Assembly (NCBI GenBank): GCA_045612205.1 | Contig: JAZKYQ010000081.1 | Span: 206 to 64,205, forward strand | Direction of reading: 5' to 3' | Length of the DNA stretch: 64,000 nt | Origin: Acutalibacteraceae bacterium | GTDB lineage: Bacteria; Bacillota; Clostridia; Oscillospirales; Acutalibacteraceae | Part shown: positions 17,036-36,304 of the stretch, piece after piece | How positions within the stretch are numbered: the first letter of the stretch is position 1 | Layout: the number at the start of each line of letters is the position of its first letter | Position numbers and translations under genes: made by a program | The notes under the pieces: generated by a model | Seen by the model: the letters and a program-made list of their open reading frames with translations, nothing else | Databases searched by the model: none | What the model was told of the DNA's origin: nothing

Positions 17036-17920
17036 ATGAAATACTTATTCTGTTATTTTATCGGTAACCGTCCCGAAGAGGAGAGGGTCCATTTTGCAGT
17101 TTCCGAAGACGGTTACAACTTTGAAGCTCTTAACGGCAACAAAGAAGTAATATTGCAGACGCTCGGCAGAAGGTGTTGCCGTGATCCTTTCCTTTTCCGT
17201 GATGAGGAAGGAATGTTTCACATCATCGCAACAGATATGCGTTCCGATGACGGCTGGGCGAACAACAATTCAATGGTAGTATGGGACAGTGAAAATCTCA
17301 CCGAATGGAAAAATGAGAGGATTATTGACTTTACCGCCTTTGAAAGCACAAAAAATGCAAACAGGGTATGGGCTCCTCAGGTAATTTTTGATAAGGCAAA
17401 AGGGGAGTATATAATCTACTGGACGCACAACAATTCTGATGATGACTTTGACACAATTCCCTGGTTTACGTACACAAAGGATTTCACCACGCTCACAACT
17501 GAGCCTAAGGTGCTTTACAGACCGTCAAGCGGACTTTGCGCTATTGACGGTGATATGATTGAGAAGGACGGCATGTACTATCTTTTTGTGGCTGACGGAG
17601 AAAAAGACGGCATATGCTATGTTGTTTCAGACAGGCCCTGCGGACCCTTTAATGAGCCTGAAAACAACAAGATTTCTCTTGCAGACACTGCTCTTGAGGG
17701 TAACTGCATTTACCGCAATGCTGAAACGGGCAAGTACATTCTTATTGCTGATCAGTTCAAAAAGGGCGGTTATTTCATGCAGGAAAGTGACGACCTTGTT
17801 CACTTCGAAAGGGTGGAGAAGGATCGCCTTTCAATCGATCATATCAGACCTCGCCACGGATCAATGCTTCTGATTACTGATGAGGAGTACGAGAGAGTGG
17901 TTGAGTTTTACGGGAAATAA
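17036..17920 (+). CDS. glycoside hydrolase family 43-like protein (five-bladed propeller, no signal peptide)
   Basis: 294 aa. CRDPFLFRDEEGMFHIIATD, VWAPQVIFDKAKGEYIIYWT, DGDMIEKDGMYYLFVAD and ALEGNCIY resemble the GH43 Asp/Asp/Glu regions. Confidence 0.6.
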   Translation: MKYLFCYFIGNRPEEERVHFAVSEDGYNFEALNGNKEVILQTLGRRCCRDPFLFRDEEGMFHIIATDMRSDDGWANNNSMVVWDSENLTEWKNERIIDFTAFESTKNANRVWAPQVIFDKAKGEYIIYWTHNNSDDDFDTIPWFTYTKDFTTLTTEPKVLYRPSSGLCAIDGDMIEKDGMYYLFVADGEKDGICYVVSDRPCGPFNEPENNKISLADTALEGNCIYRNAETGKYILIADQFKKGGYFMQESDDLVHFERVEKDRLSIDHIRPRHGSMLLITDEEYERVVEFYGK

Positions 17921-17938
17921 CAAAACAGACGGTGCAGT
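17912..17938. repeat. left copy of a perfect 27-bp direct repeat (GGGAAATAACAAAACAGACGGTGCAGT)
   Basis: Read directly. It covers the last codons and stop of the GH43-like gene plus the 5' arm of a terminator stem. It is identical to 21217..21243. Confidence 0.95.
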
Positions 17939-18007
17939 AAAGAATGCTTACAAGTCTTAACACTAAGACAAAATAATATGAGGAGCGTTAACTGTATCCT
18001 TTAAATC

Positions 18008-18040
18008 AAAAAAAGATGCCTTGCTTAAGGCGTCTTTTTT
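18008..18040 (+). terminator. hairpin/terminator inside the inserted cassette
   Basis: AAAAGATGCC / GGCGTCTTTT stem (one G-U), 8-nt loop, T-run. The flanking A-run makes it potentially bidirectional. Confidence 0.55.
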
Positions 18041-18070
18041 AGTTTTGTTTAAGATGAAAAATTCAAAACA

Positions 18071-18099
18071 TTGACAATCAAATTTTTATAAGATATAAT
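18071..18099 (+). promoter_or_regulatory. consensus sigma-A promoter of the radical SAM cassette
   Basis: TTGACA (18071..18076), 17 nt, TATAAT (18094..18099); 33 nt upstream of ATG 18132. Confidence 0.7.
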
Positions 18100-18131
18100 T
18101 TTGTTGCAATGTTATGTGAGGAGGCAAGAAA

Positions 18132-19604
18132 ATGAAGGTGTTGTTTTTCGATCCGCGAAGGTATAAGTCATTTCGCTCCAGCACTGCCCCTTTGGGGTTG
18201 TTGTCTATAGCAACGTATCTTAATGCTAACGGTCACAAGGCTGCGATTTGCGACAGAAGTCACACTAAAGAGAGCTTGAATCATATTATAAACATTAATA
18301 AGCCTGATATAATCGGTGTTTCTGTTATCACTTATAGTGCTGTAAAAGATGCTTTGAACATAGCAAAATGCGCAAAGTCAAAGGGAATACCTGTGATTTT
18401 CGGCGGTACAATATCTTCAATAATACCTTTTGAATTTCTTAAAAGCAGAAAGGTTGACTACATAAGCATTGGAGAGGGAGAAGAAACCTGGCTTGAATTA
18501 GCTGATGCGTTTGATGCCGGAAGGCCATTTGACGAAATAAAAGGACTTGCTTTTTTGAAAAACGGTGAATATATTCAAACACCGGAAAGAGATTTTACCG
18601 ATTTGTCTGTCTTGCCGATGTTAGATTGGTCGCTGATAAATCCTGCAGATTTTTTACAAAAAGGTTTTGCCGGAAAAAGACAAGCTAATATATATTATTC
18701 AAAGGGTTGTTTTGCTAATTGTCATTTTTGTTATAATAAAAATTTTCATAGGTGTTCACGAAGGCAACGTTCGTTGAAAGTTGTTATTGAAGAAATGGAT
18801 TATCTTATTGAAAATTACGGAGTAGATGGATTTAATTTTACAGACGATCTTATTTTTTATGATGAAAATCAAGTAAATGAATTTGTAGCTGAATTAATGA
18901 AATATGGAGTTCACAAAAGGTGCGGTTGGATAGGTGAAATCCGCATCGATATATTTAAGAATAAGGATATTTTTGCATTGTTATATGAGGCAGGATGTCG
19001 TAATCTTATTTTTGGAGTGGAAACCGTTTCTGATGATATGCAAAAAGTGCTGAACAAAAAGATCGATCCCCAAAAAATAAAATGGATCGTGAATGAATGC
19101 GCAGAGGTGGGTATAACACCACTGCTTACGTTTATGATAGGGCTGCCCGGAGAAACGGAAGAAAATATAAGGGAAACAATAGAATTTGCTAAATCGTTGA
19201 ATAAAGCAATTTGTTGTTTTCAGCTTTACACACCTACTCCCGGGACAAAAATATACAATGACCTGGTTTCAGCAGGAAAACTTAACAAAATGGAAACAGC
19301 TGACGAATACGGCGAAATTGTTTTCAGTGAGAAACTTTTAAAAAATATTTCTGAAATAACAACTAAAGAAATCTATACTATTTACAGATATTTTAAATTA
19401 AAGGAGTTCACCTATAAAGATAAAAATTCGGATGATGAACAAATTTTAAAAGTTATTGTAAATATAGTAAAATCTATGACCGGAAAAGGTATAGTTTACT
19501 TTTTTCTAGCAGGCATTAACAATGCGAAAAACTTGATTGTATTGTTGTCTTTTTTTCTGCATCCGCGCATAAGAAAAAAATATGGTTTGTATTTCACTAA
19601 ATAA
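18132..19604 (+). CDS. B12-binding domain-containing radical SAM protein (paralog 1)
   Basis: 490 aa. N-terminal cobalamin-binding-like region (PLGLLSIATYLNANGHKAAICD, PDIIGVSVI). Radical SAM cluster CFANCHFC (CxxxCxxC). RBS GAGGAGG. C-terminal tail FFLHPRIRKKYGLYFTK. Confidence 0.85.
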   Translation: MKVLFFDPRRYKSFRSSTAPLGLLSIATYLNANGHKAAICDRSHTKESLNHIININKPDIIGVSVITYSAVKDALNIAKCAKSKGIPVIFGGTISSIIPFEFLKSRKVDYISIGEGEETWLELADAFDAGRPFDEIKGLAFLKNGEYIQTPERDFTDLSVLPMLDWSLINPADFLQKGFAGKRQANIYYSKGCFANCHFCYNKNFHRCSRRQRSLKVVIEEMDYLIENYGVDGFNFTDDLIFYDENQVNEFVAELMKYGVHKRCGWIGEIRIDIFKNKDIFALLYEAGCRNLIFGVETVSDDMQKVLNKKIDPQKIKWIVNECAEVGITPLLTFMIGLPGETEENIRETIEFAKSLNKAICCFQLYTPTPGTKIYNDLVSAGKLNKMETADEYGEIVFSEKLLKNISEITTKEIYTIYRYFKLKEFTYKDKNSDDEQILKVIVNIVKSMTGKGIVYFFLAGINNAKNLIVLLSFFLHPRIRKKYGLYFTK

Positions 19605-19688
19605 TCAACATCGAATACTTTTATAGTGTTAATAGTGAAATAAGTTAAAACAGATTTATACTCTACTTTTATTTTAATGGGAGGTTTT

Positions 19689-21155
19689 ATGAAGGTTATA
19701 TTGTTTTATCCCAGAATAGAGGATTCGTTCAGAGCTTCTTATATGCCTTTGGGTTTGCTGTCTATAGCAACAAATCTTAACAAAAACGGTCATAAAGCGA
19801 TTATTTGTGACAGGTTTTTTGAAAATGATGACGTTGAAGACATTTTGAAGGAACATAAGCCTGATATTATCGGTGTTTCAATTATAGCTCATTCATTCTT
19901 AAAGGATGCTATGTTAATATCTAAAATTGCCAAACAACAGAATGTTCCTGTTGTTTGGGGCGGTTCCTTACCTTCGGCTATCGCCTTTGAATGTCTTTCC
20001 AGTGGTGTAGTTGATTATATAAGCTTTAATGAGGGTGAAGTAACCTGGGTAGAAATTGGAAATGCCGTTGATGCATCCGAACCGATAGAACAGGTTAAAG
20101 GTATCGGATATCTAAAAGACGGAAAATTGGTGAATACGGGAGATAGAGACTTTATTGATCTGTCAACTTTGCCGGATCTGGATTGGTCGTTGGTTAATCC
20201 AAACCGTTATTTTCAAAAATCTTACGGTTATGAAAAAATGCTCAATATGTATCTGTCTAAAGGTTGTTACGGGAAATGTGCATATTGCTATAACCCTGAA
20301 TTCCACCGTTCGACAAGACGCTGCAGACCATTGGAGCAAGTAATCAGAGAAATGAAATATCTTTCTGAAAAATATGGCGCAGACGGGTTCGATTTTACAG
20401 ATGATGCGATGTTTGTATCAAGGAAAGAAGTCGTGGATTTTTGCGATGCTTTAAAAGAAAGCGGTATGAATATCTGTTGGAGCGGATATCTTAGTCTGGG
20501 CATTATAAATACTTATGAAGATTATAAAATGATGTATGATGCCGGATGCAGGTCTATGATTTTCGGTATAGAGTCAGGTTCCGACAGAGTACTGAGAAGT
20601 GTTAATAAACATGTAAGGTTAGACAAAGCATCTTCAAATATTGCACTTTGTCATAAGGCGGGAATTGTTCCTATAACAATGTTCATCATAGGGCTTCCGG
20701 GTGAGGATGAAGAGGATCTGAAGGCTTCTGTATCATTGGCTAAACAGCTGAAGGGAACAGCAGTTGCTTGCGGTTATTTTACTCCGCTGCCGGGTTCTAA
20801 ATCTTATCGTGATTTGGTATCTTCCGGAGAAATACCTGAAACGAGGACTTTAGAGGATTTTGCTAAGATAAAGGAAACTGAAAATCTTGTAATTAACGTT
20901 ACGAAAGTAAAAGACATAGATCTTATAACTATCAGAAAATATATTCGTTTAAGGGGAATGTTTACTGAGACAGGGTATTCAACTAAAGAACAGTTAGAAA
21001 AAGTAATTTTACCTACGGTTAAATCCTGGTTTTCGCGTGGCTTCAAGCATTTTTGTCTGAGTAGCTTTAATACTGTTTACAACGTAGTAAGAACTTTCAC
21101 GATATTCTTTCATCCAAAAATTCGCAAGAAATATGGTTTGTATTTTACCAAATAA
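19689..21155 (+). CDS. B12-binding domain-containing radical SAM protein (paralog 2)
   Basis: Track ORF starts at 19677, but ATG 19689 follows GGGAGG by 4 nt. PLGLLSIATNLNKNGHKAIICD; cluster CYGKCAYC; C-terminal tail IFFHPKIRKKYGLYFTK nearly identical to paralog 1. Confidence 0.85.
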   Translation: MKVILFYPRIEDSFRASYMPLGLLSIATNLNKNGHKAIICDRFFENDDVEDILKEHKPDIIGVSIIAHSFLKDAMLISKIAKQQNVPVVWGGSLPSAIAFECLSSGVVDYISFNEGEVTWVEIGNAVDASEPIEQVKGIGYLKDGKLVNTGDRDFIDLSTLPDLDWSLVNPNRYFQKSYGYEKMLNMYLSKGCYGKCAYCYNPEFHRSTRRCRPLEQVIREMKYLSEKYGADGFDFTDDAMFVSRKEVVDFCDALKESGMNICWSGYLSLGIINTYEDYKMMYDAGCRSMIFGIESGSDRVLRSVNKHVRLDKASSNIALCHKAGIVPITMFIIGLPGEDEEDLKASVSLAKQLKGTAVACGYFTPLPGSKSYRDLVSSGEIPETRTLEDFAKIKETENLVINVTKVKDIDLITIRKYIRLRGMFTETGYSTKEQLEKVILPTVKSWFSRGFKHFCLSSFNTVYNVVRTFTIFFHPKIRKKYGLYFTK

Positions 21156-21216
21156 ATCAGTAAGGTTTTTGTTGGCGAATCGTTGAAATCTATAACCTAA
21201 TATTATTTGCTTCATT

Positions 21217-21243
21217 GGGAAATAACAAAACAGACGGTGCAGT
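21217..21243. repeat. right copy of the perfect 27-bp direct repeat
   Basis: Identical to 17912..17938. Here it continues into the complete terminator hairpin. Confidence 0.95.
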
Positions 21244-21270
21244 TAAAAGCTCTGCACCGTCTTTTCGTTT
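21233..21270 (+). terminator. intact intrinsic terminator (the displaced terminator of the GH43-like gene)
   Basis: Perfect 10-bp stem GACGGTGCAG / CTGCACCGTC, 9-nt loop, then TTTTCGTTT. Confidence 0.85.
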
Positions 21271-21370
21271 CATAAAATCTTATTCCTCCTTAGTCCATCA
21301 CGCAAAGCTTATAAATAATCAAACTAATTTTGCTCGTTTCAAGAAGAAAAATACATAGCTTCGGAAAAAG

Positions 21371-21406
21371 TTTGTAATAACTTTGTAAGAGGTTTTGTGA
21401 TATAAT
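21371..21406 (+). promoter_or_regulatory. tandem 11-bp direct-repeat operator + -10 box (site a, upstream of the histidine kinase)
   Basis: TTTGTAATAAC (21371..21381) TTTGTAAGAGG (21382..21392), 8 nt, TATAAT (21401..21406); 30 nt upstream of the start at 21436. Confidence 0.7.
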
Positions 21407-21435
21407 AAAAAAAGAATTTTAAAAGGAGATAGATT

Positions 21436-23280
21436 GTGTTGAAGGAAATGAAGATAAAAAATGAGAAGCAAAAGTTAATAATCGCTTCTTTGGTACTGTT
21501 TCTTGTGCTTTCATGTGCACTGCTTATCGATGCGGTCACGAACAGCTCTCAGGCAGAGTGGGCAATTATTCCTGACATCAGGCTTGTTGGTGAATACAAA
21601 ATCGGAGACGGTGAATGGAAGGAAATTGTTGAGGGTGAGCATATCTCTGCCACAAAAGGCGATGTCAGATTGAAAGGTGTACTTGAAATCTTAGACCCCG
21701 AAACAAACGAAGCTTTCGGACCGGTTGAAAAAGGCTCGCTGATGTTATTTACTTTTAACCACATAAATCTTGCTTTAACCGATAATGATGAGATGATCTA
21801 TGTATGTGATACAGAAAATCCCGAGCTGGGTGAGGATTTCTGCGGTGATACCTGCTTTGTAGTGGAATCTGTCGGTGAAGACGGTTACTTTGAAGCAACA
21901 ATCCGTAACTATCACCGTTTCGGAAATGAAACCGCTGTTGATGAGCTTCTTTCTTCGATGAAGCTTTATGCAAGTGACTATTCTGAAAAAATAGCTCTGC
22001 GTTCAGGACAGAATGACAGAGTGCTTGCAATAATAATCATTATTTCTGCTTTTATTGTTCTGGGTATAACAATTTTCTCAGCTTTGCTTTACAAAGATAT
22101 ATTCAGAAGTGCTTTCTTCGGTGGATTATTGATTCTTTCAGCAGGAATTTTCTTCCTTTTCACCTCAAGAGCGTTTTTCTTCTGGTCTGATAAGGTTATA
22201 GTCAACACAATGACGACCGGACTTTCCGCAATAGCTTATACTTTATTTGCTCTTTTGCATATGAAGAGTTTTATTTCAAAAAACATGCATAAAGCGGCCG
22301 ATATTGTCACATTACTTTACGGCGTTTTTATAAGCGTTCTTGTTTCTGCTTCTCTTTTCAGTGATATATATTTTTATGATGTGCTCGGAATCTGGGCTAT
22401 CGGTGCGATTGCCGTATCGCTTATCTTTATAGTGTTATCTCTTCTTTCACTGAAAAAATCATCCGGCAAACAAAAAATCTTACTGCTTTTTGTGACTGTA
22501 GGTCTTGTGCTGTTTTTAGCCGATACAGCAGCAGTATATTTTGGCTTATGGGGAACAGGATTTTTGTCTAAAATCTTTTTCCTTGTCGGCTTTGTTGCTA
22601 CGGCGGTTGTTTTCCTGCGTATCGTACCTAAAAACATTAAGGCGGCCGAAAAGGCAGAAAAGCTTGAAAAAGAAAAAATCAAGCTTGATGCCGAGCTTGC
22701 CAAAAGTCGTATTTCCACTCTTATGAGTCAGATTCATCCTCATTTTATTTACAATACTCTCGGAAGCATTGAGCAGCTTTGCGAGCTCGACCCACCAAAG
22801 GCGGCAAAGCTTGTTAACGATTTTTCAAGGTATCTCAGGGGTAATTTTGGTGAGATTGATAATCCGAAGCTCATCCGTGTTTCAAAGGAGCTTGAGCATA
22901 CGGAATACTATATCGGCATCGAAAAGGTACGCTTCCCTGATATTGAATTTGTTGCAGAAATGAACTGCAGTGATTTCAGCATCCCTGCGCTTACAATTCA
23001 GCCCTTGGTTGAGAATGCTATCAAGCACGGTATTCTTAAGAGGGACGAAGGCGGAACGGTAAAGGTCAGAATTTATGAAACTGACAGCAGTTACTTTATA
23101 ACTGTAAAGGATAACGGTGTCGGCTTTGATGTAAGTGCAATTGAACAGAAAAATCATATAGGATTAAGAAATATCAAAAGCAGACTTGAAGCAATGTGCG
23201 GCGGTATCCTTCATATTGAAAGCATAATCGGTGTAGGTACCAAGATTACAGTTGAAATTCCGAAGGAGGCAGACTTATGA
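21436..23280 (+). CDS. sensor histidine kinase, LytS/YehU-type catalytic core, with extracytoplasmic domain and multi-TM block
   Basis: 614 aa. H-box HPHFIYNTLGSI; N box LVENAIKHG; DNGVGF and GLRNI boxes. N-terminal TM, about 190-aa outside domain, then 6-7 TM helices. GTG start 7 nt after GGAG. The stop overlaps the response-regulator start (ATGA). Confidence 0.85.
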   Translation: MLKEMKIKNEKQKLIIASLVLFLVLSCALLIDAVTNSSQAEWAIIPDIRLVGEYKIGDGEWKEIVEGEHISATKGDVRLKGVLEILDPETNEAFGPVEKGSLMLFTFNHINLALTDNDEMIYVCDTENPELGEDFCGDTCFVVESVGEDGYFEATIRNYHRFGNETAVDELLSSMKLYASDYSEKIALRSGQNDRVLAIIIIISAFIVLGITIFSALLYKDIFRSAFFGGLLILSAGIFFLFTSRAFFFWSDKVIVNTMTTGLSAIAYTLFALLHMKSFISKNMHKAADIVTLLYGVFISVLVSASLFSDIYFYDVLGIWAIGAIAVSLIFIVLSLLSLKKSSGKQKILLLFVTVGLVLFLADTAAVYFGLWGTGFLSKIFFLVGFVATAVVFLRIVPKNIKAAEKAEKLEKEKIKLDAELAKSRISTLMSQIHPHFIYNTLGSIEQLCELDPPKAAKLVNDFSRYLRGNFGEIDNPKLIRVSKELEHTEYYIGIEKVRFPDIEFVAEMNCSDFSIPALTIQPLVENAIKHGILKRDEGGTVKVRIYETDSSYFITVKDNGVGFDVSAIEQKNHIGLRNIKSRLEAMCGGILHIESIIGVGTKITVEIPKEADL

Positions 23281-24056
23281 TTGCTATAGCAATAGATGAT
23301 GAACAGCTGATGCTTTATGCACTTGAAAAAGCAATAAAGGCATCAGAGGATATAGAAGAAGTTGCAGGCTTTTCAAATTGCGACGAGGCATTGGACTGGC
23401 TTGAAATCAATACTCCTGATGTGGCATTTCTTGATATTAATATGCGTGGCATCAACGGTATCGCATTGGCGGAAAAAATTACATCGATTTATCCCGATTG
23501 CAAAATAGTTTTCTGCACAGGTTATGAGGAATATGCTGTTTCAGCCTTTAAAATTCACGCTTCGGGTTATCTTCTCAAGCCTGTTTCAGCCGAGGATGTG
23601 CAAAAGGAAATTGATGTTATCAAGGGCAGAAAAATAGAAAAAGGCATCCTTAAGGCAAAATGCTTCGGTAATTTTGACGTTTCCTGCGGCGGTGAAAAGC
23701 TTACCTTCAAAAGAACAAAAAGCAAGGAAATGCTTGCTTATCTCATTGACCGTAACGGAGCAGATGTTTCCTCAAAGGAGATAGCCGCTGTGCTCTGGGA
23801 GGACGGCACAAAGGAAAACAACAGAAACTACTTTCATCAGCTTCTTTTAGATGTGCGTCATACTCTTGAAAAAGCAGGTGCAGATGATGTGCTGAAAAAG
23901 AACGGATATCTTTATTCCGTTGATACAAGCAGAATTTCCTGTGACTATTATTCTTACCTTAAAACGGGTCAGCCTGAATTTCAGGGTGAATATATGACAC
24001 AATACAGCTGGGCTGATGAAACCTGTGGCTTGCTCTGGAGTAAAAACAATAAATAA
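23277..24056 (+). CDS. response regulator: REC domain + OmpR/SARP-type winged-helix DNA-binding domain
   Basis: 259 aa. REC with IAIDDE and phospho-acceptor context VAFLDINM. C-terminal CFGNFDVSCGGEKLTFKRTKSKEMLAYLIDRNG..VSSKEIAAVLWED...YFHQLLLDVRHTL resembles SARP/OmpR wHTH. Confidence 0.85.
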   Translation: MIAIAIDDEQLMLYALEKAIKASEDIEEVAGFSNCDEALDWLEINTPDVAFLDINMRGINGIALAEKITSIYPDCKIVFCTGYEEYAVSAFKIHASGYLLKPVSAEDVQKEIDVIKGRKIEKGILKAKCFGNFDVSCGGEKLTFKRTKSKEMLAYLIDRNGADVSSKEIAAVLWEDGTKENNRNYFHQLLLDVRHTLEKAGADDVLKKNGYLYSVDTSRISCDYYSYLKTGQPEFQGEYMTQYSWADETCGLLWSKNNK

Positions 24057-24064
24057 ACTTATAA

Positions 24065-24099
24065 AAAAGATCGAATTTTTTCGGTCTTTTTGTTTTTTT
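24065..24099 (+). terminator. terminator after the two-component operon
   Basis: AAAAGATCGAA / TTCGGTCTTTT stem (one G-U), TTTT loop, long T-run. Confidence 0.7.
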
Positions 24100-24107
24100 A
24101 GAATGAT

Positions 24108-24143
24108 TTTGTAATAAGTTTGTAATACAATCTGTGTTATAAT
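24108..24143 (+). promoter_or_regulatory. tandem 11-bp direct-repeat operator + -10 box (site b, upstream of the 1808-aa surface protein)
   Basis: TTTGTAATAAG (24108..24118) TTTGTAATACA (24119..24129), 8 nt, TATAAT (24138..24143); 31 nt upstream of ATG 24174. Confidence 0.7.
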
Positions 24144-24173
24144 AGGATGTATTTTATTTAGGAGGTAAAACCT

Positions 24174-27100
24174 ATGAAAAAAGTAATAAGTATTTTATTG
24201 ACAATCATTATGCTCTTTACAATGGTTCCTGTAAGCGTTTTTGCTGCAGAGGAAATCACAGTTAATCTTGTGAGCTTTATGCGCGGAGATGTTAATGATC
24301 TTCGTTCAAGTGAGCTTTTAGAGGTACAGGTAGAGGGCTACGACGGAAACCCGAGAGAGCTCACATATAAGTGGACAAGCTCACTCGGTACATACCTTTA
24401 CATTTATAACTCACATAATATGTATGGTATCAACAACACATATGGTGAAATGGAAATCTATAACACCGATAAAAAAATCAGCCGCAACAGCAATGTTGAA
24501 GCAGACAGAGCCGGCGATAAGACTTTATCAAAAGCAGGCTTTATGTGGGCTTCTGTTTATGGTGCTTATGAATATTCCAATGTCAGTGCTTCTACTGCAC
24601 TTAAGGGCACTGTAAAAGTCGAAGTTTATGATAGTAAGGGTACTAAGCTTGGTGAAGATAGTTTCTCAAGCTTCAAGGTACACAATCTTGACGGAGACCT
24701 CGACAATGTTGTTATCGGTCTTTTCGAGGGCGACAGAATGAACGCACTTGATCTTCTCGGTCAGAGTGGTATTGTTCATATCACATGTGAACAGAGTAAA
24801 GTTTCAAGTGCTGAGATTCTTGAAGGCGATGAACACATAAAAATTGAAACTGAGAAAAAGGATAGTAATACTTACAACTACTATATTAAAGGTATAAAAG
24901 CCGGAGATAACAGCACTAATGGTGATGCTCAGCTTGAGATTAATATAAAAAAGACATCCTGTAAGTTCCACTATAACACAAGCGGTACTGCTGAGCCAAT
25001 AGTATATGTTTTCAAAAAGCCCAAGACATCAACCACCACAACAACTCTTACTCTTGTTGATGATATTGACAGCCGCTGTGAATATTTTATCAACGGTAAC
25101 AAGGGTGAAAAGCAGGATGATGGCACAATCATCTTCACAGGTCTTGATCCCAACACCAAATATACAGTAGAAGTTCGTGCCGAATACGAAGATAAGGGCA
25201 CAACCAAGTATGTTTACGGTTATGTAGAAGACACAACAAAGCCTGTTTATAAGGCTACAGTCAAGACATATCTCGACGACACAATTACTGATATCTCATC
25301 AATTCACGGTGAAGAAGTAACTCTTTACATCCGTAAGGATCTCGAGGATGCAGAATATATTGTGCTTACAAAGAACGGCACAGGTACATATGAAGCAATC
25401 GTTGAAAACGGTACATATTATCCCTGGCACTACGAAAACGGCACATACCATCAGGCAAGAAAATATGAGCTCATTATCCAGAATGCTAACGCAGAGCTTT
25501 ACCTTCACCACTACAGTGTGAAATATGACACAAACGGCGGTGCATTCAAGTCAGGCGAAGATGTTGGCACAGAGATTTACTCAAGTATGACAGCAGTAAA
25601 TGCTACTTCAAATGTTCCCGTACGTGAAGGCTATGTATTTGCAGGCTGGGAATATAACGGTAAGGTTATCACTTCAGGCAAGCAGATCACTTCATCAATC
25701 TCCGCTCCCATTACACTCAAGGCAAAATGGGAAAAGGCTGTTAACGTAATAATCAACGTTACTATTGACCACAAAACTGTGGACGGCTTTGATCCTAATC
25801 CTTCAAGAACAGAGCTTGATGTTGATTTCCTTGAAATGACTGCAAACTCACCCGCATTTGTTGAAACAGGCGACAAGCTTTATTTCAGAGAAGATAAGGT
25901 TACCGATGAAAACGGTAGTGCAAAAGCTTATACTTACTCAATTGAAAACAATGTTTCAAAATATACTGCAACAGATTATACTTACACAGGTCTTCTTGAA
26001 TCCTCAACCTTCGGTGTTGCTTTAAGTAAGTCAGGCTATGATGTAGGTACAATTGAAAAGAAACAGGATAAACTCGGTAATTGGGTTATCAATATTCCTC
26101 TTACCTATAATCCCGACGACTTTGATCTTGAATTCAGCGTTGAAATGGATGATGATGTTCCCAAGGAGCTTTATCCTGATGCTGTAATCGTTAAGGTTGC
26201 ATACTGGAATACAGATACAAATGAATGGAAAATCATTTCTCAGCAGGAAAATGCAGGCGCTGTTGTAAAGCCCGGTGTACGTGTTGACATTGATCCTAAA
26301 ACAGGCGAAGGCTCGGGCTCATATCCCGTATGGAGATATGACGGTAAAAACAACCCCTACGGCTACCGTGCAGTTGTTACCGGTTTCATTTATGACGGTT
26401 CAACAATTGTTGTACCCACAGAAAAGGATCATACAAAGGATGACAACACTGTTATCGTTACATATACTGACGGTAACTACACCGCTACAATGAGCGATAT
26501 CGCTGACGGTAAAAAGTTCAGCACATCTCTTAACGGTGCATATTACAATGATAAAACAAATGCTCAGCAGGGTACACTTCACGGTGTAATTTCAGTTGAA
26601 AAGTATGATGTTACCTTTGATGCTCAGGGTGGAACAAACGCTGAGGGCAAGGATGCTGCAAAGCAGGTTTATCGTGTTCCTGAGCTTGACGGATATAAGC
26701 CCACAATGGAAAATCACAATTTCCTTGGCTGGTACAAGGATAAGGAATGCACAATTCCTGCAGTTGAAAATGAACTTCTCACCGAAGATATTACTCTTTA
26801 TGCAAAGTGGGATAAGATTCTCACAGGTAACGTAAGAGTTGCAGGTTCATATGTTCAGAACGGCGAGATAGTAGATGTATGGGCAGTTGACCGTGCTGAC
26901 AGTGCAGTTGTAGTTCTTCAGGAAATCACTGAAACCGGTGTTTATAGCATTGACAGACAGACTGTTAATATTGTATGGCCCATGGCTGAAATGGTTTACG
27001 GTATTTCAGAGGAATATAAGTTTACAGGTCTTGATCCTGCAAAGCAGTACAGAACTGAAGTTTATGTTCTTAACTACGGCACAACCTATCAGAACTCAAC

Positions 27101-29600
27101 AACAGTAGTTGATGACGATGATGAATACGCAGACGATTACAACTCAACAGACTATGAAGCAATCTATCCCGAAAACAGCAAGTTAGAAACATTTGTAAAT
27201 GCTTATCTTTCATTTGAGCCTGCTTCATATTTCCAGCCCGTTGAGGTTGATGCAACCCTCATCGGTGCAAACTTAAGACCCGAGGATACACTCGTTCAGG
27301 TATGGTACAAGGCAACAGGCACAAGCAACGCATACCAGGTAATCAGCCAGCACACAGTTGTTCCCTACGGTATTGAGGTAGGTATGGGTGCTGACGGTAT
27401 GGATGACGGCTACTACGGCTATGTGGTATGGAACAGCTTGTATAACGGTAATCTTTATGACTATCAGGCACATCTTGATAAGATTGAAGGTCAAGCAGTT
27501 TCAGAGTGGCCCGTATCAGTGGTTTACGGTGAACCCTCACGTTACAGTCCTCTTAATAACGCTGCAACAGGTGTGCTTCAGGTTAAGCTTGTTCCTAACC
27601 GTTACGGTATTATCTATAACGAAAATTATGCTCCCGAAGGTGTAGAAGTAGTTTCTTACGGAACTCACATCTGGAGCTATGACACAGTTATTGATTACGT
27701 TCCCGTTCGTGAAGGCTATATCTTCCAGGGTTGGTATGCTAACCCCGAATGCACAGGCGATAAGGTTACAGAGATTGATGAAACTGTTGCTCAGGATACA
27801 AACCTTTACGCTAAATGGGAAGCAGAAACCGGACATGAGCTTACAGTAAACTATGTTGAAAAGTTTACAGATGCAGTGCTTGAAACTGAAATCAAGGATT
27901 ATTCATTTGACGATGTTGTAACTGCAGAAAGCCTTAAGAAGGATTTCAAGGGCTTCACATACGACAGCGCAAGTGCTGAAAGTGTAAAGATCACTAAAGA
28001 CAAAAACGAAATCACTCTTTACTATGTAAGAAACAACTACGGCTATACTGTAAACTATCTTGAGGAAGGCACAAACAAGGTTCTTGCAACTTCAAAAACT
28101 GCAGAAGCACCATTTGCTTCATTTGTAACTGAAACAGCAATCGCAATTAAAGGCTATGTTCTTACAGGTTACACCAGTCAGACAGTTACAATTACTATCG
28201 ATACAGATGCAACAAAGAACGTTATCAACTTCTACTATGCAGTTGACAACCTCGGTGGCGGCGAAGGCGGTAACGAAGGCGACGGCACACCCGACAAGTA
28301 TCAGAAGAAGGTAATCTTCAAGGTTGTCAACGGTATCTGGTCAAACGGTACAACTGAAGACATCATTCAGTATGTAACTCTTGTTAAGGACGGTAAGCTT
28401 GATGCCGAAGGTTCAGCTGAACTTAAGGCTCCCAACGGCATGATTGCAAACACAGGCTACAAGAACGGCTCATGGGATAAGGAAATTCCCTCAACCGTAA
28501 GCGGCACAGAAACACTTACATTCACCTACAGCTTTGTAAGAAGCACAACTCCGGTTGAACCGCTTGATGATGTAAGATATATTGTTGAGCATTACAAAGA
28601 AAATGCTGACGGCACATACAGCCTCGTTGAAGAGGATACAGAAATCCTCGTCGGCAAAATCGGTGAAAAGGTTACTGCAACAGAAAAGGCCTATGATGGC
28701 TACTGCCTGAATGAAAGCAAGTCAGAAGCAACTTCAAGCGGTGTGCTTAAGGCTGTCGGCAACGAAAGTGATATCGTTACACTCAAGCTTTATTATGATA
28801 TTGATAAGCTTGGAGGTGGCGAAAACGGCGACGAAGGCGACGGCACTCCCGACAAGTATCAGAAGAAGGTAATCTTCAAGGTTGTAAACGGCACATGGGC
28901 TGACGGTACAACAGCTGATAAGGTTGTTTACCTTGATCTTATGAAGGACGGCAAGTATGCACTTGACGGTACAGCTGCTCTTACAGCTCCCACAGGTATG
29001 AAGGCAAATGAAGGCTTTGAAGGCGGAGCTTGGGATATCACTCCTCCCTCTGCTGTAAGCGGTACAAACGTAGAGACATACACCTATACCTTTACTGAAA
29101 CAGCTCCGGAAGAACCTGATACTCCCGACAACCCTGACAATCCCGATACTCCTGACGAACCCGATGTTCCTGATACTCCTGTTAATCCCGACAGTCCCGA
29201 GGGAGACGGTGAAGGCGATAACGGTTCAGGTAACCTCGGCTTCAAGAATTATATTCTCTTCGGTAAGACTGACGGTATCGGCTGGTATCAGGTTTCCAAG
29301 GATGGCGGACAGCCCTATGATGTCGTATTCGGTAATTCAACATATGAGGTTGAGCCCGGTACAGAGATTATCGTCAAGGTCGGAGATCTTATGGGCGATG
29401 CATTTACCTTCTATGTAAACGGTGATGCAATTGAGCCTGACGAAAACGGAAATCTCGTTATCACAGTTGACGGATATATGCTCATCGGTGCACTCGGCTA
29501 TAAGGTTAATGTGCCTGATGTTGAAGAATCACTCAACTGGTTCCAGAAGCTTATCAAGGCAATCAAGGATTTCTTTGCAAAGCTTTTCGGTAAAAAATAA
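24174..29600 (+). CDS. giant secreted adhesin-like protein (Listeria-Bacteroides/InlB-B-type repeats, MucBP-like units, Pro/Asp linker, C-terminal amphipathic helix)
   Basis: 1808 aa with a signal peptide (LLTIIMLFTMVPVSVFA). Flg_new-type units: YSVKYDTNGGAF...VREGYVFAGWEY, YDVTFDAQGG...NHNFLGWYKDKEC, YGIIYNENY...VREGYIFQGWYANPEC. MucBP-like units: LTVNYVEKF.., YTVNYLEEG.., VRYIVEHYKEN... No LPXTG motif. Confidence 0.8.
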   Translation: MKKVISILLTIIMLFTMVPVSVFAAEEITVNLVSFMRGDVNDLRSSELLEVQVEGYDGNPRELTYKWTSSLGTYLYIYNSHNMYGINNTYGEMEIYNTDKKISRNSNVEADRAGDKTLSKAGFMWASVYGAYEYSNVSASTALKGTVKVEVYDSKGTKLGEDSFSSFKVHNLDGDLDNVVIGLFEGDRMNALDLLGQSGIVHITCEQSKVSSAEILEGDEHIKIETEKKDSNTYNYYIKGIKAGDNSTNGDAQLEINIKKTSCKFHYNTSGTAEPIVYVFKKPKTSTTTTTLTLVDDIDSRCEYFINGNKGEKQDDGTIIFTGLDPNTKYTVEVRAEYEDKGTTKYVYGYVEDTTKPVYKATVKTYLDDTITDISSIHGEEVTLYIRKDLEDAEYIVLTKNGTGTYEAIVENGTYYPWHYENGTYHQARKYELIIQNANAELYLHHYSVKYDTNGGAFKSGEDVGTEIYSSMTAVNATSNVPVREGYVFAGWEYNGKVITSGKQITSSISAPITLKAKWEKAVNVIINVTIDHKTVDGFDPNPSRTELDVDFLEMTANSPAFVETGDKLYFREDKVTDENGSAKAYTYSIENNVSKYTATDYTYTGLLESSTFGVALSKSGYDVGTIEKKQDKLGNWVINIPLTYNPDDFDLEFSVEMDDDVPKELYPDAVIVKVAYWNTDTNEWKIISQQENAGAVVKPGVRVDIDPKTGEGSGSYPVWRYDGKNNPYGYRAVVTGFIYDGSTIVVPTEKDHTKDDNTVIVTYTDGNYTATMSDIADGKKFSTSLNGAYYNDKTNAQQGTLHGVISVEKYDVTFDAQGGTNAEGKDAAKQVYRVPELDGYKPTMENHNFLGWYKDKECTIPAVENELLTEDITLYAKWDKILTGNVRVAGSYVQNGEIVDVWAVDRADSAVVVLQEITETGVYSIDRQTVNIVWPMAEMVYGISEEYKFTGLDPAKQYRTEVYVLNYGTTYQNSTTVVDDDDEYADDYNSTDYEAIYPENSKLETFVNAYLSFEPASYFQPVEVDATLIGANLRPEDTLVQVWYKATGTSNAYQVISQHTVVPYGIEVGMGADGMDDGYYGYVVWNSLYNGNLYDYQAHLDKIEGQAVSEWPVSVVYGEPSRYSPLNNAATGVLQVKLVPNRYGIIYNENYAPEGVEVVSYGTHIWSYDTVIDYVPVREGYIFQGWYANPECTGDKVTEIDETVAQDTNLYAKWEAETGHELTVNYVEKFTDAVLETEIKDYSFDDVVTAESLKKDFKGFTYDSASAESVKITKDKNEITLYYVRNNYGYTVNYLEEGTNKVLATSKTAEAPFASFVTETAIAIKGYVLTGYTSQTVTITIDTDATKNVINFYYAVDNLGGGEGGNEGDGTPDKYQKKVIFKVVNGIWSNGTTEDIIQYVTLVKDGKLDAEGSAELKAPNGMIANTGYKNGSWDKEIPSTVSGTETLTFTYSFVRSTTPVEPLDDVRYIVEHYKENADGTYSLVEEDTEILVGKIGEKVTATEKAYDGYCLNESKSEATSSGVLKAVGNESDIVTLKLYYDIDKLGGGENGDEGDGTPDKYQKKVIFKVVNGTWADGTTADKVVYLDLMKDGKYALDGTAALTAPTGMKANEGFEGGAWDITPPSAVSGTNVETYTYTFTETAPEEPDTPDNPDNPDTPDEPDVPDTPVNPDSPEGDGEGDNGSGNLGFKNYILFGKTDGIGWYQVSKDGGQPYDVVFGNSTYEVEPGTEIIVKVGDLMGDAFTFYVNGDAIEPDENGNLVITVDGYMLIGALGYKVNVPDVEESLNWFQKLIKAIKDFFAKLFGKK
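28251..29100 (+). repeat. internal duplication (two ~290-bp homologous segments, 558 bp apart)
   Basis: GGCGACGGCAC(A/T)CCCGACAAGTATCAGAAGAAGGTAATCTTCAAGGTTGT occurs at about 28279 and about 28837. Protein level: GDGTPDKYQKKVIFKVVNG(I/T)W..GTT twice. Confidence 0.8.
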
Positions 29601-29608
29601 TTGATCAT

Positions 29609-29644
29609 AAACCATCGGTGTGAACCGGTGGTTTATTGTTTCTT
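29609..29644 (+). terminator. terminator after the adhesin-like gene
   Basis: AAACCATCGG / CCGGTGGTTT stem (one G-U), 6-nt loop, then ATTGTTTCTT. Confidence 0.65.
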
Positions 29645-29695
29645 ATGAGCAAATCAAATGAAAAATCTGAATTTTTATTATATCTGTCAGCTGAA

Positions 29696-29731
29696 TTTGT
29701 AAGAGGTTTGTAAGAGGTAATATGTTAGAAT
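29696..29731 (+). promoter_or_regulatory. tandem 11-bp direct-repeat operator + -10 box (site c, upstream of the partner-switching operon)
   Basis: TTTGTAAGAGG (29696..29706) TTTGTAAGAGG (29707..29717), 8 nt, TAGAAT (29726..29731); 70 nt upstream of ATG 29801. Confidence 0.7.
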
Positions 29732-29800
29732 AATCTTTTTAAAGGAGTATTTTAATTTTTAGCATATTCATAAAGAAATATTTGGAAAGAAGTACTGATA

Positions 29801-30763
29801 ATGAGTAAGAAAAATAAATTTTTTGCCGATGACGGATGGGCAATGTGGGTTGACGGTGACGATGTCAGCACAATCTATCTGAACAACTGGCTCAACCCTA
29901 AGGGAAAAAGCTACGTGGATGTAGCTATACATATAAGAGGAATCAATGAAACCAAGTCACTTAATATATATTTTCCTTTTAATGTTGACAAAAACGAAAT
30001 TGAGGATGTTTCACTCAAATTCAATGATGAGAATCTTTCAAGAGCAATTTTCAGCAGTATGTGTGTGATCGATTACAAGAAAAACAAGGCTACATCGGAA
30101 ATTGCATACAACGGAAAAACCGTGGATATAGTTCATATATCGGCTCTTGAATATACTGTGGAGCCTGTTTCGTCAGGTGCGTTGTTAAAGGTGCCTTTTG
30201 CGGAGCTGTTTGAATATCTCGACAATGACGAGGTTTATTTTATGTTCCGTGTTCCTCACAAATCCATAACAAAGGTTTTCAGACAGCGTAACAAGGTCGG
30301 CAGCTTTTTCAATAAGACCCGTGACCTTCTTATGTCACCGATTATTTCCGAAAGCTACGGATATTCAGTAAGAATCAATGAGGGCAGACTTCTTCCCAGG
30401 GAGGTCAACAGTATCGGCGCCTTCCACAGACAGAAGCTGAAAAAGGCCGTTGTAACAATTTCAGTTGCCGAGGATTATGAAATCAGTGATGTGTCCTGTT
30501 ACCGCATCAGAAGGCTTGAAGAAGAGCTGTATGAGAATTTCCTTCCTGCAGGCTTTGACGGTGAGGACGTGGTTACTTATCAATGGCAGCAAACCCGTGA
30601 AACCAATTTAAGGGGTCACTTTAATTTTTACCTCAGCATATCCCGTAACGCAATCAGCAAGGGAAGTCTTATTATATACCTGATTATCATTGTTTTTCTT
30701 GATGTTGCAGGCGGTATGACATGGGATCTTATACAGCTTCTGTATAAATTGATTTTTGGTTAA
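29801..30763 (+). CDS. hypothetical protein with C-terminal TM tail anchor
   Basis: 320-aa ORF, first gene after operator site c. Only one hydrophobic helix, at the extreme C-terminus (LIIYLIIIVFLDVAGGMTWDLI). No family recognised. Confidence 0.6.
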   Translation: MSKKNKFFADDGWAMWVDGDDVSTIYLNNWLNPKGKSYVDVAIHIRGINETKSLNIYFPFNVDKNEIEDVSLKFNDENLSRAIFSSMCVIDYKKNKATSEIAYNGKTVDIVHISALEYTVEPVSSGALLKVPFAELFEYLDNDEVYFMFRVPHKSITKVFRQRNKVGSFFNKTRDLLMSPIISESYGYSVRINEGRLLPREVNSIGAFHRQKLKKAVVTISVAEDYEISDVSCYRIRRLEEELYENFLPAGFDGEDVVTYQWQQTRETNLRGHFNFYLSISRNAISKGSLIIYLIIIVFLDVAGGMTWDLIQLLYKLIFG

Positions 30764-30775
30764 AGGAGGAAACAG

Positions 30776-33610: not shown

Positions 33611-33622
33611 AGGAGACTTCTT

Positions 33623-33919
33623 ATGAATATCAATATCGAAAAAACAAACGGTGTAACTCTTATGGCTCTTGAAGGCAGACTTGACACAACAACAGCACCC
33701 GAGCTTGAAAAGGCTATCAATGGTGAAGGCGCAGCTCTTAAGAGCTTAGTGCTTGATTTCAAGGGCGTTGACTACATTTCAAGTGCAGGTCTTCGAGTGC
33801 TTCTTACAGCACAGAAAAAGATGAACGCTCAGGGACATATGGAGCTTGTGGGTGTAAGCGAAGCAGTTATGGACATATTCGAAATGACAGGCTTTGCAGA
33901 CATTCTGGAGATTAAATGA
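33623..33919 (+). CDS. STAS-domain anti-sigma-factor antagonist (SpoIIAA/RsbV-like)
   Basis: 98 aa. LEGRLDTTTAPELEKAI and DYISSAGLRVLL (conserved phosphorylatable Ser context); FEMTGF. Confidence 0.85.
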   Translation: MNINIEKTNGVTLMALEGRLDTTTAPELEKAINGEGAALKSLVLDFKGVDYISSAGLRVLLTAQKKMNAQGHMELVGVSEAVMDIFEMTGFADILEIK

Positions 33920-34485
33920 TGGATAAGGTAACAAAAGCAATTGAATTTGCCGCAAAGGCTCACGACGGCATGGAAAGAAAAAAGGATAAAACACCTTATA
34001 TTCTTCATCCTCTTGAAGCAGCAGTAATTGTCGGCTCTATGACTGAGGATAAAGATGTCATCTGTGCAGCAGTGCTTCACGATGTAGTGGAGGATACTCC
34101 GATTACCATTGAAGAAATTGAAGAAAATTTCGGAGCCCGTGTAAGAGCACTTGTTGAATCGGAAACAGAGGACAAGCGTGCTGATTTGCCGCCGGAGGAC
34201 ACCTGGAGAATAAGAAAAGAGGAATCTCTTGAAGAGCTTGCAAACTGTGGCAATACCGATGTTCTTATGCTCTGGATTGGTGACAAGCTGTCCAATATGC
34301 GTTCTTTTTACAGAATATGGAGAGCCGAGGGTGACAGCATGTGGCAGTCCTTTAATCAGAAGGACCCTGCACAGCAGAAATGGTATTACAGCACTATATC
34401 CGAGCTTACTTCCTCACTCAAGGATTTTGCAGCGTGGCAGGAATATAACGAGCTTGTAAAAATTGTTTTCGGAAAGGTTAAATAA
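33916..34485 (+). CDS. HD-domain protein of the RelA/SpoT hydrolase type (small alarmone hydrolase-like)
   Basis: 189 aa. AIEFAAKAHDGMERKKDKTPYILHPLEAAVIV and AAVLHDVVEDTPITIEEIEENFGARVRALVESET match HD_4/(p)ppGpp-hydrolase motifs. The start overlaps the STAS stop (ATGA). Confidence 0.75.
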   Translation: MMDKVTKAIEFAAKAHDGMERKKDKTPYILHPLEAAVIVGSMTEDKDVICAAVLHDVVEDTPITIEEIEENFGARVRALVESETEDKRADLPPEDTWRIRKEESLEELANCGNTDVLMLWIGDKLSNMRSFYRIWRAEGDSMWQSFNQKDPAQQKWYYSTISELTSSLKDFAAWQEYNELVKIVFGKVK

Positions 34486-34486
34486 A

Positions 34487-35653: not shown

Positions 35654-35654
35654 T

Positions 35655-36221
35655 ATGAAAAATATACTTTTTATAAATGCTTGCTGCAGAGACAGCTCTC
35701 GCACAAATGAATTGGCACAGTGCTTGCTTGACAACCTGAACGGTCAGGTCAAAGCAGTAAATCTCTATGAGGAAAATCTGAAACCCATTGATGCAGAATT
35801 GCTTTTTAAAAGAGACAGTTTACTCAAAGAAGATAAAACAGATGATGAAATGTTTACTTTGGCAAAGCAGTTCTCTTTAGCTGATGCAATAGTTATTGCT
35901 GCACCTTATTGGGATCTTATGTTTCCCTCAATACTCAAGGTTTATCTTGAAAACATAACCGTATGCGGTGTAACCTTCCGTTACTCAGAAAAAGGAATTC
36001 CTCAGTCTCTTTGTAAAGCGGAAAATCTTTATTATGTCACAACATCAGGAGGCTTTATCGGTGAAAACAATTTCGGATTTGATTATGTAAAGGCTCTTGC
36101 TACGGGCTTTTTCGGAATCGGTAATGTAAGCTGCTTTTCAGCCGAAGGACTTGATATTTACGGCGCTGATGTCGGCACAATTATGCAAAAAGCAAAAGAA
36201 AATATTAAAAGAGGGATATGA
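35655..36221 (+). CDS. flavodoxin-fold NAD(P)H-dependent oxidoreductase (FMN reductase/azoreductase-like)
   Basis: Track ORF starts at 35625, but ATG 35655 lies 1 nt after the upstream stop. MKNILFINACCRDSSRT and ADAIVIAAPYWDLMFPSILKVYLENI resemble the Flavodoxin_2/FMN_red families. Confidence 0.6.
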   Translation: MKNILFINACCRDSSRTNELAQCLLDNLNGQVKAVNLYEENLKPIDAELLFKRDSLLKEDKTDDEMFTLAKQFSLADAIVIAAPYWDLMFPSILKVYLENITVCGVTFRYSEKGIPQSLCKAENLYYVTTSGGFIGENNFGFDYVKALATGFFGIGNVSCFSAEGLDIYGADVGTIMQKAKENIKRGI

Positions 36222-36231
36222 ATCCGCTTTA

Positions 36232-36266
36232 TTTGTAAGCGGTATGTAATACCGGATGTGTAAAAT
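36232..36266 (+). promoter_or_regulatory. tandem 11-bp direct-repeat operator + -10 box (site d, degenerate second repeat)
   Basis: TTTGTAAGCGG (36232..36242) TATGTAATACC (36243..36253), 7 nt, TAAAAT (36261..36266); 39 nt upstream of ATG 36305. Confidence 0.55.
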
Positions 36267-36304
36267 ATACCATACAATAATTTATTAAAAAAGGAGAATT
36301 TTTT

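Follow-up and report, generated by a model that had tools for sequence, protein, structure and literature searches.

The window analysed here, the whole 64,000-nt stretch of DNA from an Acutalibacteraceae bacterium, contains a cassette that encodes two paralogous B12-binding radical S-adenosylmethionine (SAM) proteins, rSAM_A and rSAM_B, and stands between the two copies of a perfect 27-bp direct repeat. We confirmed this repeat-bracketed arrangement, and comparison with relatives showed that the pair was inserted at the 3' end of a GH43-like glycoside hydrolase gene, that the gene end was duplicated, that the pair recurs at other sites and that its proteins fall, by sequence and predicted structure, into the class-B radical SAM enzymes. 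From these results we infer the recombination route, the present transcription pattern and the chemistry of the enzymes. Our proposal, which we rate as somewhat better than an even bet, is that this B12-radical SAM pair with its own promoter was integrated by host machinery at a short shared stretch, and that the 27-mer would be a recombination scar rather than a recognition site. The loci of the compared relatives carry L numbers (L020, L024 and so on).

A two-gene cassette between duplicated gene ends

Searching the window for the 27-mer GGGAAATAACAAAACAGACGGTGCAGT returned exactly two copies, at 17912-17938 and 21217-21243, which match perfectly. No further copy was found in the 64-kb window, even with 3 mismatches, and none of 100 dinucleotide shuffles of the window contained two matches. 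An earlier reading made from the letters of the window (the sequence-only reading) had placed the repeat at these positions and had judged its recurrence to be beyond chance, and both statements held. It had also described the left copy as the last codons and stop of the GH43-like gene followed by the 5' arm of a stem, in agreement with the GGG AAA TAA and GACGGTGCAG found there, and had noted that the complete terminator is reached from the right copy only; the stem of this hairpin lies at 21232-21242 and 21252-21262, followed by TTTT. The separation of the GH43-like gene from its own terminator by about 3.28 kb was likewise correct, with 3278 bp between the repeats (17939-21216) and the hairpin directly after the stop in the closest relative, L020. 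The features of the locus are as follows.

17036..17920, plus strand: GH43-like glycoside hydrolase gene, the target gene, with its 3' end duplicated (Pfam Glyco_hydro_43, E = 8.8e-13; L020 ortholog 87% identical)
17912..17938, plus strand: left 27-bp direct repeat, comprising the last two sense codons, the stop, a spacer, the 5' arm of the terminator and the first loop base
17939..18007, plus strand: left end of the insert, 69 nt, with no significant fold
18009..18040, plus strand: the insert's own hairpin, terminator-like on both strands (14-pair stem and T run; -17.1 kcal/mol, z = -5.2)
18071..18099, plus strand: sigma-70-type consensus promoter, TTGACA-17-TATAAT, the sole 12/12 match in 17700-21500
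18132..19604, plus strand: rSAM_A, 490 aa, predicted class-B radical SAM protein with the motif CFANCHFC (Pfam B12-binding and Radical_SAM)
19689..21155, plus strand: rSAM_B, 488 aa, paralog of rSAM_A with the motif CYGKCAYC (Pfam B12-binding and Radical_SAM)
21156..21216, plus strand: right end of the insert, 61 nt, unstructured and without a terminator of its own (fold z = +0.9)
21217..21243, plus strand: right 27-bp direct repeat, homologous to L020 10877-10903
21232..21266, plus strand: native intrinsic terminator of the GH43-like gene (11-bp stem, 9-nt loop, T run; -19.6 kcal/mol, z = -6.1)

The two rSAM genes are the only genes of the insert, and their products are 44% identical, with near-identical C-terminal tails. 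The start of rSAM_B is most likely ATG 19689 (MKVILF) and not 19677, the start given by the ORF tool, because GGGAGG lies 5 nt upstream and the database entry P0035, which comes from the same contig as the window cassette, has 488 aa. The contents named by the sequence-only reading were borne out, namely a hairpin of the insert's own, the consensus promoter and two B12-binding radical SAM paralogs of about 490 aa with near-identical tails (Pfam and alignment). Its statement that the insert lacks a recombinase, a transposase and inverted terminal repeats also stood. Neither the insert nor the rest of the 64-kb window gave a recombinase or transposase hit in the domain searches, and comparison of the two ends of the window cassette revealed no terminal inverted repeat (13/40 positions matching). 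A 13-nt inverted match (17971-17983 and 21196-21208) was rejected as an end repeat, being subterminal, AT-rich and no better than many chance pairs. No sequence similar to the left end of the insert was found in any fetched locus, and none similar to the right end was found elsewhere among these loci. The left end has one frame with 21 open codons, whose stop at 18002-18004 lies just 5' of the hairpin; this frame may be the remnant of a donor gene end.

The insert had further been called more AT-rich than its flanks. This difference is real, with GC contents of 0.341 and 0.371 for the rSAM_A and rSAM_B genes against about 0.44 in the upstream syntenic core genes, but it is only moderate: the two genes rank second and fourth lowest in GC among 33 long window ORFs, and their z-scores relative to all ORFs of the window are only -1.6 and -0.9. 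In the window as well as in L024, L026 and L108, the AT content of the pair exceeds that of its flanks, and base composition backs a foreign origin of the cassette only moderately.

We scanned species-representative genomes with the GH43-like protein and obtained 23 loci, all from metagenome-assembled genomes (MAGs) of Acutalibacteraceae/Oscillospiraceae type; the cassette pair was present at the GH43-like locus in none of the 23. The closest relative is L020, an Acutalibacteraceae MAG with about 83% nucleotide identity, which retains metK, the flavodoxin/ferredoxin gene and the GH43-like gene. In this genome, GACGGTGCAG-8 nt-CTGCACCGTC comes immediately after the GH43-like stop, and the convergent rubredoxin gene is next. 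Window positions 17035-17941 and 21217-21290 both align to L020 10000-10949, where the 27 bases are single-copy, and the homology passes through the left repeat as far as 17941. Both window copies have one and the same sequence, with the same three departures from L020, which dates the duplication to the time after the two lineages separated. No microhomology was seen at the right junction of the window, and at the left junction only AAAG against TAAAAG.

The sequence-only reading had taken the insert for a recently acquired cassette without an integrase, and had suggested looking for an empty site in relatives, with one 27-mer copy and an intact terminator, and for other insertion contexts. 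L020 provides the empty site, and other contexts were found, again without a recombinase. Together with the shared differences from L020, these results support that interpretation.

The pair at other sites

More than 1000 homologs of rSAM_A, of about 488-495 aa and none of them specifically named, were found in Clostridia MAGs. Those at 56-65% identity all lie within two-gene pairs, each pair at a different site, and the pair stands at five different sites in five contigs.

Window: GH43-like gene before the pair, LytS-type kinase gene after it
L024: TIGR04076 gene before, tRNA-Ser (minus strand) after
L025: fumarase gene before, 182-aa gene (minus strand) after
L108: Trp/Tyr permease gene (minus strand) before, MOSC gene (minus strand) after
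L026: helix-turn-helix (HTH) regulator gene (minus strand) before, β-mannobiose-phosphorylase-like gene (minus strand) after

In a neighbour-joining tree, the A-type and B-type proteins form two clades with the same branching, the gene order being reversed in L026; the two genes therefore arose by a single, old duplication and move together. Members that occur as single copies are more distant (48-49% identity) and have a conserved neighbourhood and no flanking repeats. A further contig, L123 (P0006), stops inside the second gene and has no right junction. The B-type gene is frameshifted in L108 (6190-7655) and in L123 (2801-3414), which suggests that some copies of the cassette may be decaying. 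In L025, a region 2 kb from the pair (1-5971) carries three more B12-binding radical SAM genes (492, 494 and 641 aa) and another radical SAM gene. The gene beside the L026 pair was rejected as a GH43-like ortholog (E = 0.39).

We assessed flanking repeats by comparing 600 bp on each side of every unit with shuffles. Three of the five pairs proved to be bracketed, by 27 bp (perfect) in the window, 28 bp with one mismatch in L024 and 45 bp (perfect) in L025, with repeat scores of 25-45 against a shuffle maximum of 13-15; the L108 and L026 pairs had no flanking repeat above shuffle level. These repeats show no sequence relationship to one another, and each belongs to the native sequence of its site: a gene end plus half a terminator in the window, a stretch within the last codons of the TIGR04076 gene in L024, and the complete terminator hairpin after the fumarase gene in L025. 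The 8-mer CAGACGGT, common to the window and L025 repeats, was discarded as a motif, since it is probably a chance match and is absent from L024. An exhaustive search of 440 kb of related loci for exact repeats of at least 20 nt, lying 0.3-20 kb apart, found only about six other repeat-bracketed segments, and on this rough count the three bracketed pairs out of five represent a strong enrichment over background.

The cassettes themselves have no end sequence in common among the three compared. End-to-end inverted matches amount to 13/40, 8/40 and 17/40, and the insert ends vary from 3 to 61 nt past the stop codon and from 73 to 204 nt ahead of the start codon. Searches of phages, plasmids and viral contigs gave nothing closer than 31% identity and revealed no vehicle, and a JGI metagenome scan with the family profile returned distant relatives only (at most 34% identity), unusable for junctions.

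For L024, the locus of the closest homolog of its TIGR04076 gene, L122, was compared. L122 lacks the pair and is syntenic with L024 over 5 kb upstream, to position 7935 at the end of the TIGR04076 gene; it is a second empty site, matching L024. The 120 closest TIGR04076 homologs overwhelmingly end in ...FRPVSFY(V/I)E(V/T/A)xE(E/D). After the 28-mer, the right and now non-coding copy in L024 reads FRPVNFYVEVTEE up to the stop, with the end ...EVTEE. The live gene ends in ...FYVEGVEG, and its DNA, GTGTGGAG, resembles the native TTGTGGAG of L122. Both ends are family-like, and the two copies thus run into different versions of one gene end. Such differing ends rule out a fresh target duplication, and they would follow from recombination inside the conserved 28 bases with incoming DNA that brought a homologous gene end. 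At the other junction of L024, AATGACG (7 nt) is common to the end of rSAM_B and the target, and the L025 junction shows a weaker likeness, TCAxAAxACAA (9/11).

Possible routes of integration

In the proposal we favour, a horizontally acquired operon (17939-21216), with its own promoter and an old, co-evolving paralog pair, would have become integrated at the GH43-like gene's 3' end and terminator, with no recombinase among its genes. The recombination or replication machinery of the host would act on a short sequence common to the incoming DNA and the target, through a single crossover of a circularised fragment, homology-facilitated illegitimate recombination (HFIR) or template switching. 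All three would leave a copy of the shared stretch, which measures 27 bp in the window, at either side of the insert, and their products would be alike. The GH43-like transcript would now end at the hairpin brought by the insert, and the cassette would be transcribed from its own promoter and end at the former GH43-like terminator. A self-encoded or sequence-specific system is disfavoured because there are no recombinase, terminal repeats or conserved ends, because no relative was found on phages, plasmids or viral contigs, and because the repeats vary and are specific to their sites. Host recombination at short homology is favoured over a transposase because of the diverged gene ends and the 7-nt microhomology in L024. 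Related scars elsewhere in the window also speak for it: the 14/16 duplication of the rubredoxin 3' end around a 27.9-kb block, the perfect 20-mer around a rep+mob plasmid-like segment, and the orphan 3' copy of an Rhs gene.

In E. coli, DNA that is homologous at one end only is mostly integrated by recircularisation and a single crossover, which leaves the homologous stretch duplicated, and true HFIR uses microhomologies of 3-10 bp (PMC3240628). Such one-sided-homology integration (PMC3240628; de Vries and Wackernagel 2002 and Prudhomme et al. 2002, cited there) resembles the present case in several respects. No element recombinase takes part, the ends of the insert are not conserved, the duplication is the stretch shared with the target, and microhomology is found at the illegitimate joint (7 nt in L024). 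It differs in that the duplications measure 109-950 bp in the experiments and 16-45 bp here. Classical HFIR also usually deletes recipient DNA rather than duplicating it. The window junctions lack microhomology, and the events considered here are deduced from natural genomes. A second parallel is offered by type VI secretion system (T6SS), Rhs and contact-dependent inhibition (CDI) loci, where incoming modules displace old 3' gene ends downstream (PMC5361080). As in L024, the module in these displacement arrays is anchored on a conserved upstream gene end and two gene-end versions are left, and an orphan Rhs array lies within the same window (60194-60708 and 62223-62737). The cargo here is, however, a two-gene metabolic operon and not a toxin-immunity pair, the anchor is tens of bases long, and the upstream genes differ from site to site.

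Several points weigh against this proposal. Host-mediated events are reported at frequencies 10^2 to 10^6 below homologous recombination (PMC3240628), yet three of five pairs are scarred, and 27 bp is far below the duplications obtained in experiments. The homology routes require incoming DNA that already carried the 27 target bases beside the cassette. The window junctions are crisp, with no microhomology on the right, and a staggered cut would explain them more simply. In L025, the perfect 45-nt core has diverged edges and the first bases of the insert lengthen the hairpin. All compared relatives are MAGs or metagenome contigs and none comes from the species of the window; exact look-ups of the GH43-like and rSAM_A proteins gave no record of a second strain of it. 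As to the cargo, no NCBIfam model scores above its cut-off, and the gene neighbourhoods are uninformative on function.

A serious alternative is an enzyme acting in trans and making widely staggered cuts, because host-mediated events are rare and three of five pairs nevertheless carry scars, and because the window junctions are free of microhomology. The pair would then be a non-autonomous mobile cassette whose transposase or integrase is encoded elsewhere and cuts near gene 3' ends or terminators, with target duplications of 16-45 bp; we consider this possible, at a rather low probability. The crisp window junctions fit it, as do the site-specific repeats at three of five pairs against about six other bracketed segments in 440 kb, and each of the three cassettes points in the direction of the gene upstream of it, with a terminator hairpin no more than about 20 nt away. 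There is a precedent in IS1549 and IS1634, which have direct repeats of 8-514 bp formed by an unknown mechanism (PMC2266710) and share with the cassettes long flanking repeats of a length that varies with each insertion. These elements, however, encode a DDE transposase and have terminal inverted repeats, and the cassette has neither. Terminal inverted repeats and conserved ends, by which such an enzyme could recognise its substrate, are missing, the insert ends vary as described above, and no candidate enzyme was found in the 64-kb window. Similar scars also surround other cargo, and the entry of the two L024 copies into different gene-end versions would be impossible for a fresh target duplication.

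A broader possibility, which we put forward tentatively, is an undescribed route in gut Oscillospirales that moves recombinase-less operon cassettes to gene 3' ends and terminators and leaves duplications of 16-45 bp. Either a trans enzyme with wide staggered cuts or copy-choice triggered by the terminator hairpin could be at work, and the pair would be a recurrent passenger or a dedicated non-autonomous element.

It seems quite unlikely to us that the 27-mer is the core of an attachment site and the pair an integrase-less element of the CIME (cis-mobilisable element) type, served in trans by a tyrosine or serine recombinase. Direct repeats that rebuild a gene 3' end are the usual signature of an integrase, the repeat length is within the usual range of such cores, and a tRNA-end repeat surrounds a Fic/HTH_17 segment in L019. 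However, the repeats at the three sites share no sequence, and one recombinase specificity would be insufficient for them. The cassettes are trimmed to a promoter and two genes, down to 3 nt after the stop, which is unlikely to have come about by three independent decays; there is no integrase in the 64 kb, and no close relative on phages, plasmids or viral contigs. Known integrase-less islands and islets flanked by attachment sites are similar in their short inserts, in direct repeats that restore a gene 3' end and in having no integrase inside. The cassettes are unlike them in having no common attachment sequence, no sign of a larger ancestor and such tight trimming. Integron cassettes are also one- or two-gene units without a recombinase of their own and with a hairpin-forming site nearby. 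The present cassette, in contrast, has its own promoter, no attC-like imperfect palindrome at its 3' end (z = +0.9), direct repeats that are target sequence, and no integron integrase or attI nearby.

Very improbably, the arrangement is ancestral and L020 lost the cassette by recombination between the repeats, its empty site being a deletion product. Such an event would leave one copy and an intact terminator, as in L020, and the comparison rests on one close relative. Older repeats should nevertheless have diverged, like the neighbouring repeat that matches at 14 of 16 positions, whereas the window copies are identical and share their three differences from L020. The pair is also missing from all 23 GH43-like loci of the relatives, sits at a different site in every genome and has a GC content below that of its flanks. 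An assembly artefact, in the form of a chimeric join at a short repeat in a metagenome contig, is hardly credible: the window and all compared loci do come from metagenome assemblies, but such assemblies finish with k-mers longer than a 27-bp repeat, each junction is a unique sequence, the same architecture occurs in three contigs from different projects and assemblers, and the succession of promoter, two genes and terminator makes sense as an operon.

The enzymes, the surrounding loci and significance

The two proteins match Pfam Radical_SAM (E = 3.8e-21 and 2.9e-20) and the B12-binding domain PF02310 (E = 2.2e-16 and 5.5e-17), and the cysteines C193, C197 and C200 of the CxxxCxxC motif show no variation across 26 family members. 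In the confident AlphaFold model of rSAM_A (pLDDT 90.8), an N-terminal Rossmann B12-binding domain precedes the barrel, and the nearest folds are TsrM, AprD4, MgmA, OxsB, CysS and TokK (TM 0.62-0.68, identity 13-20%). These solved class-B enzymes are alike in their B12-binding domain, CxxxCxxC barrel and helical C-terminal domain; they are unlike the present proteins in the low identity, and the C-terminal tail HPxIRKKYGLYF, conserved after hydrophobic helices, is specific to the family here. Hits to the NCBIfam class-B models reached 95-140 bits against cut-offs of 360-750. The best scores were 140 bits for BchE (cut-off 481), 134 for HpnJ (578), 124 for ApyD (750) and 105-122 for PhpK (600), and neither protein reached the cut-off of these models or of those for ladderane-lipid rSAM, BzaD, MgmA and HpnR. 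Domain content and the structural model together point to an uncharacterised family of class-B (cobalamin-dependent) radical SAM enzymes. By analogy, its members most likely carry out B12-dependent radical chemistry, with methylation, the commonest chemistry in the class, as the most likely reaction. AprD4 has a B12-binding domain, yet it is reported to be active without cobalamin.

The substrate is probably not a ribosomal peptide. No credible precursor-peptide ORF was found in the three gaps of the cassette, as the sequence-only reading had also concluded, neither protein has an extra Pfam domain for peptide recognition, and no small partner gene recurs beside family members in ten contexts. 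TIGR04076 was rejected as a functional partner of the family, the small ORF beside another member being YlcI/YnfO-like. The flanks of the insertion site hold genes for SAM synthetase and a flavodoxin/ferredoxin fusion (11274-13273) and for rubredoxin (49174-49326), which would supply SAM and reductant; their proximity to the cassette looks coincidental because L020 has these genes too, although it lacks the cassette. Upstream of the SAM synthetase gene (11274-12458), at 11021-11116, lies a SAM riboswitch (Rfam RF00162, 76.8 bits). It was the sole non-tRNA match to Rfam, and none was found for the cassette or for a leader-like motif of the relatives.

The cassette is the first 3.3 kb of a synteny gap of about 31 kb against L020, and a block of 27.9 kb comes next. 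The rubredoxin gene of L020 returns in the window only at 49170.

21277..21292, plus strand: degenerate copy (14/16) of the rubredoxin 3' end and stop, left boundary of the second block (alignment with 49168-49183 and L020)
21293..49167, no strand assigned: second block, 27.9 kb, absent from L020 (comparison with L020; no recombinase found)
49168..49183, plus strand: native 16-nt copy at the rubredoxin 3' end (rubredoxin CDS 49174-49326, minus strand)

The 16-nt sequence that flanks this block, ATCTTATTC[C/T]TCCT[T/C]A, matches at 14 of 16 positions between its copies and is single-copy in L020. The block carries a LytS-type kinase and regulator, two large surface proteins (1263-1808 aa), a SpoIIE phosphatase with STAS and anti-sigma-kinase-like partners, a nonribosomal peptide synthetase-like A-T-C protein and a cation-efflux protein. 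Two separate inserts thus occupy this convergent intergenic spot, both with a duplicated gene end at their flanks, and the second is the older, decayed one. The motif ATTTGTAAGAGGTTTGTAAGAGGT, at 29695-29753 and 38894-38952, stands upstream of two gene blocks, and the related TTTGTAAGAGG at about 21370-21405 upstream of the LytS-type kinase gene; this motif is a candidate operator of the LytS-type two-component system.

Further along the window, the perfect 20-mer TTTTATATATAAAGAAAATT at 49548-49567 and 54009-54028 brackets 4.44 kb (49568-54008) that encode DUF3990, an OB-fold protein, a Mob_Pre relaxase and a replication/primase-like protein, with no integrase found. This segment resembles a small mobilisable plasmid that entered the chromosome without the help of an integrase. 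The corresponding position of L020 is occupied by a larger, related segment, where the 20-mer is inexact. An Rhs-repeat protein of about 2150 aa (54922-61365) is followed by a very AT-rich small gene (61381-62055, GC 0.25), and 515 bp of the Rhs 3' region (60194-60708) recur at 62223-62737 with 83% identity and run into a 327-aa ORF (62357-63340); this region is an orphan Rhs toxin array.

On the other side of the GH43-like gene, 13289-17023 encodes a 1244-aa transglutaminase-core/fibronectin-III protein with four 366-bp internal repeats (14510-15810). L020 has a membrane protein of about 230 aa in its place, which is another indel between the two genomes. Among the relatives, the hairpin AAAACCACCTC...GAGGTGGTT and the adjacent motif TTCAAATTCCACTCAATCGGCAGAGGAAAGAGCCGAAC are conserved in three MAG species beside Mn-catalase-like genes (L002 1711-1757 and 4686-4732, L014 11447-11533, L022 4120-4200) and have no Rfam family match. 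L002 has two copies of this hairpin, one on each side of a 3-kb block that lies immediately downstream of the GH43-like gene and carries genes for a metallophosphoesterase, a GH5 cellulase and a Mn-catalase-like protein. In L019, the CCA end of tRNA-Met and its terminator are duplicated (6783-6905 and 9860-9905; 23 nt exact, about 46 nt with loop differences), and between the repeats lie 3 kb that contain a Fic/HTH_17 gene and two unknown genes but no integrase.

Catalogues of gene transfer mostly seek integrases, transposases and conserved ends, and an insert of this kind is invisible to them. One module was found here at five sites in five genomes, three of them with site-specific duplications and two with matching empty sites. 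The same pair with the same type of scar at unrelated sites goes beyond the ordinary and makes the phenomenon testable. A duplicated 3' gene end or terminator around an insert offers a countable signature for operon gain without mobile-element machinery in gut Clostridia, and if a dedicated mechanism were at work, this would be a new kind of mobile cassette. The cargo represents a large uncharacterised family of B12-dependent radical SAM enzymes of gut bacteria, and the repeated transfer of both genes together suggests that they provide a function that is selectable and complete in itself.

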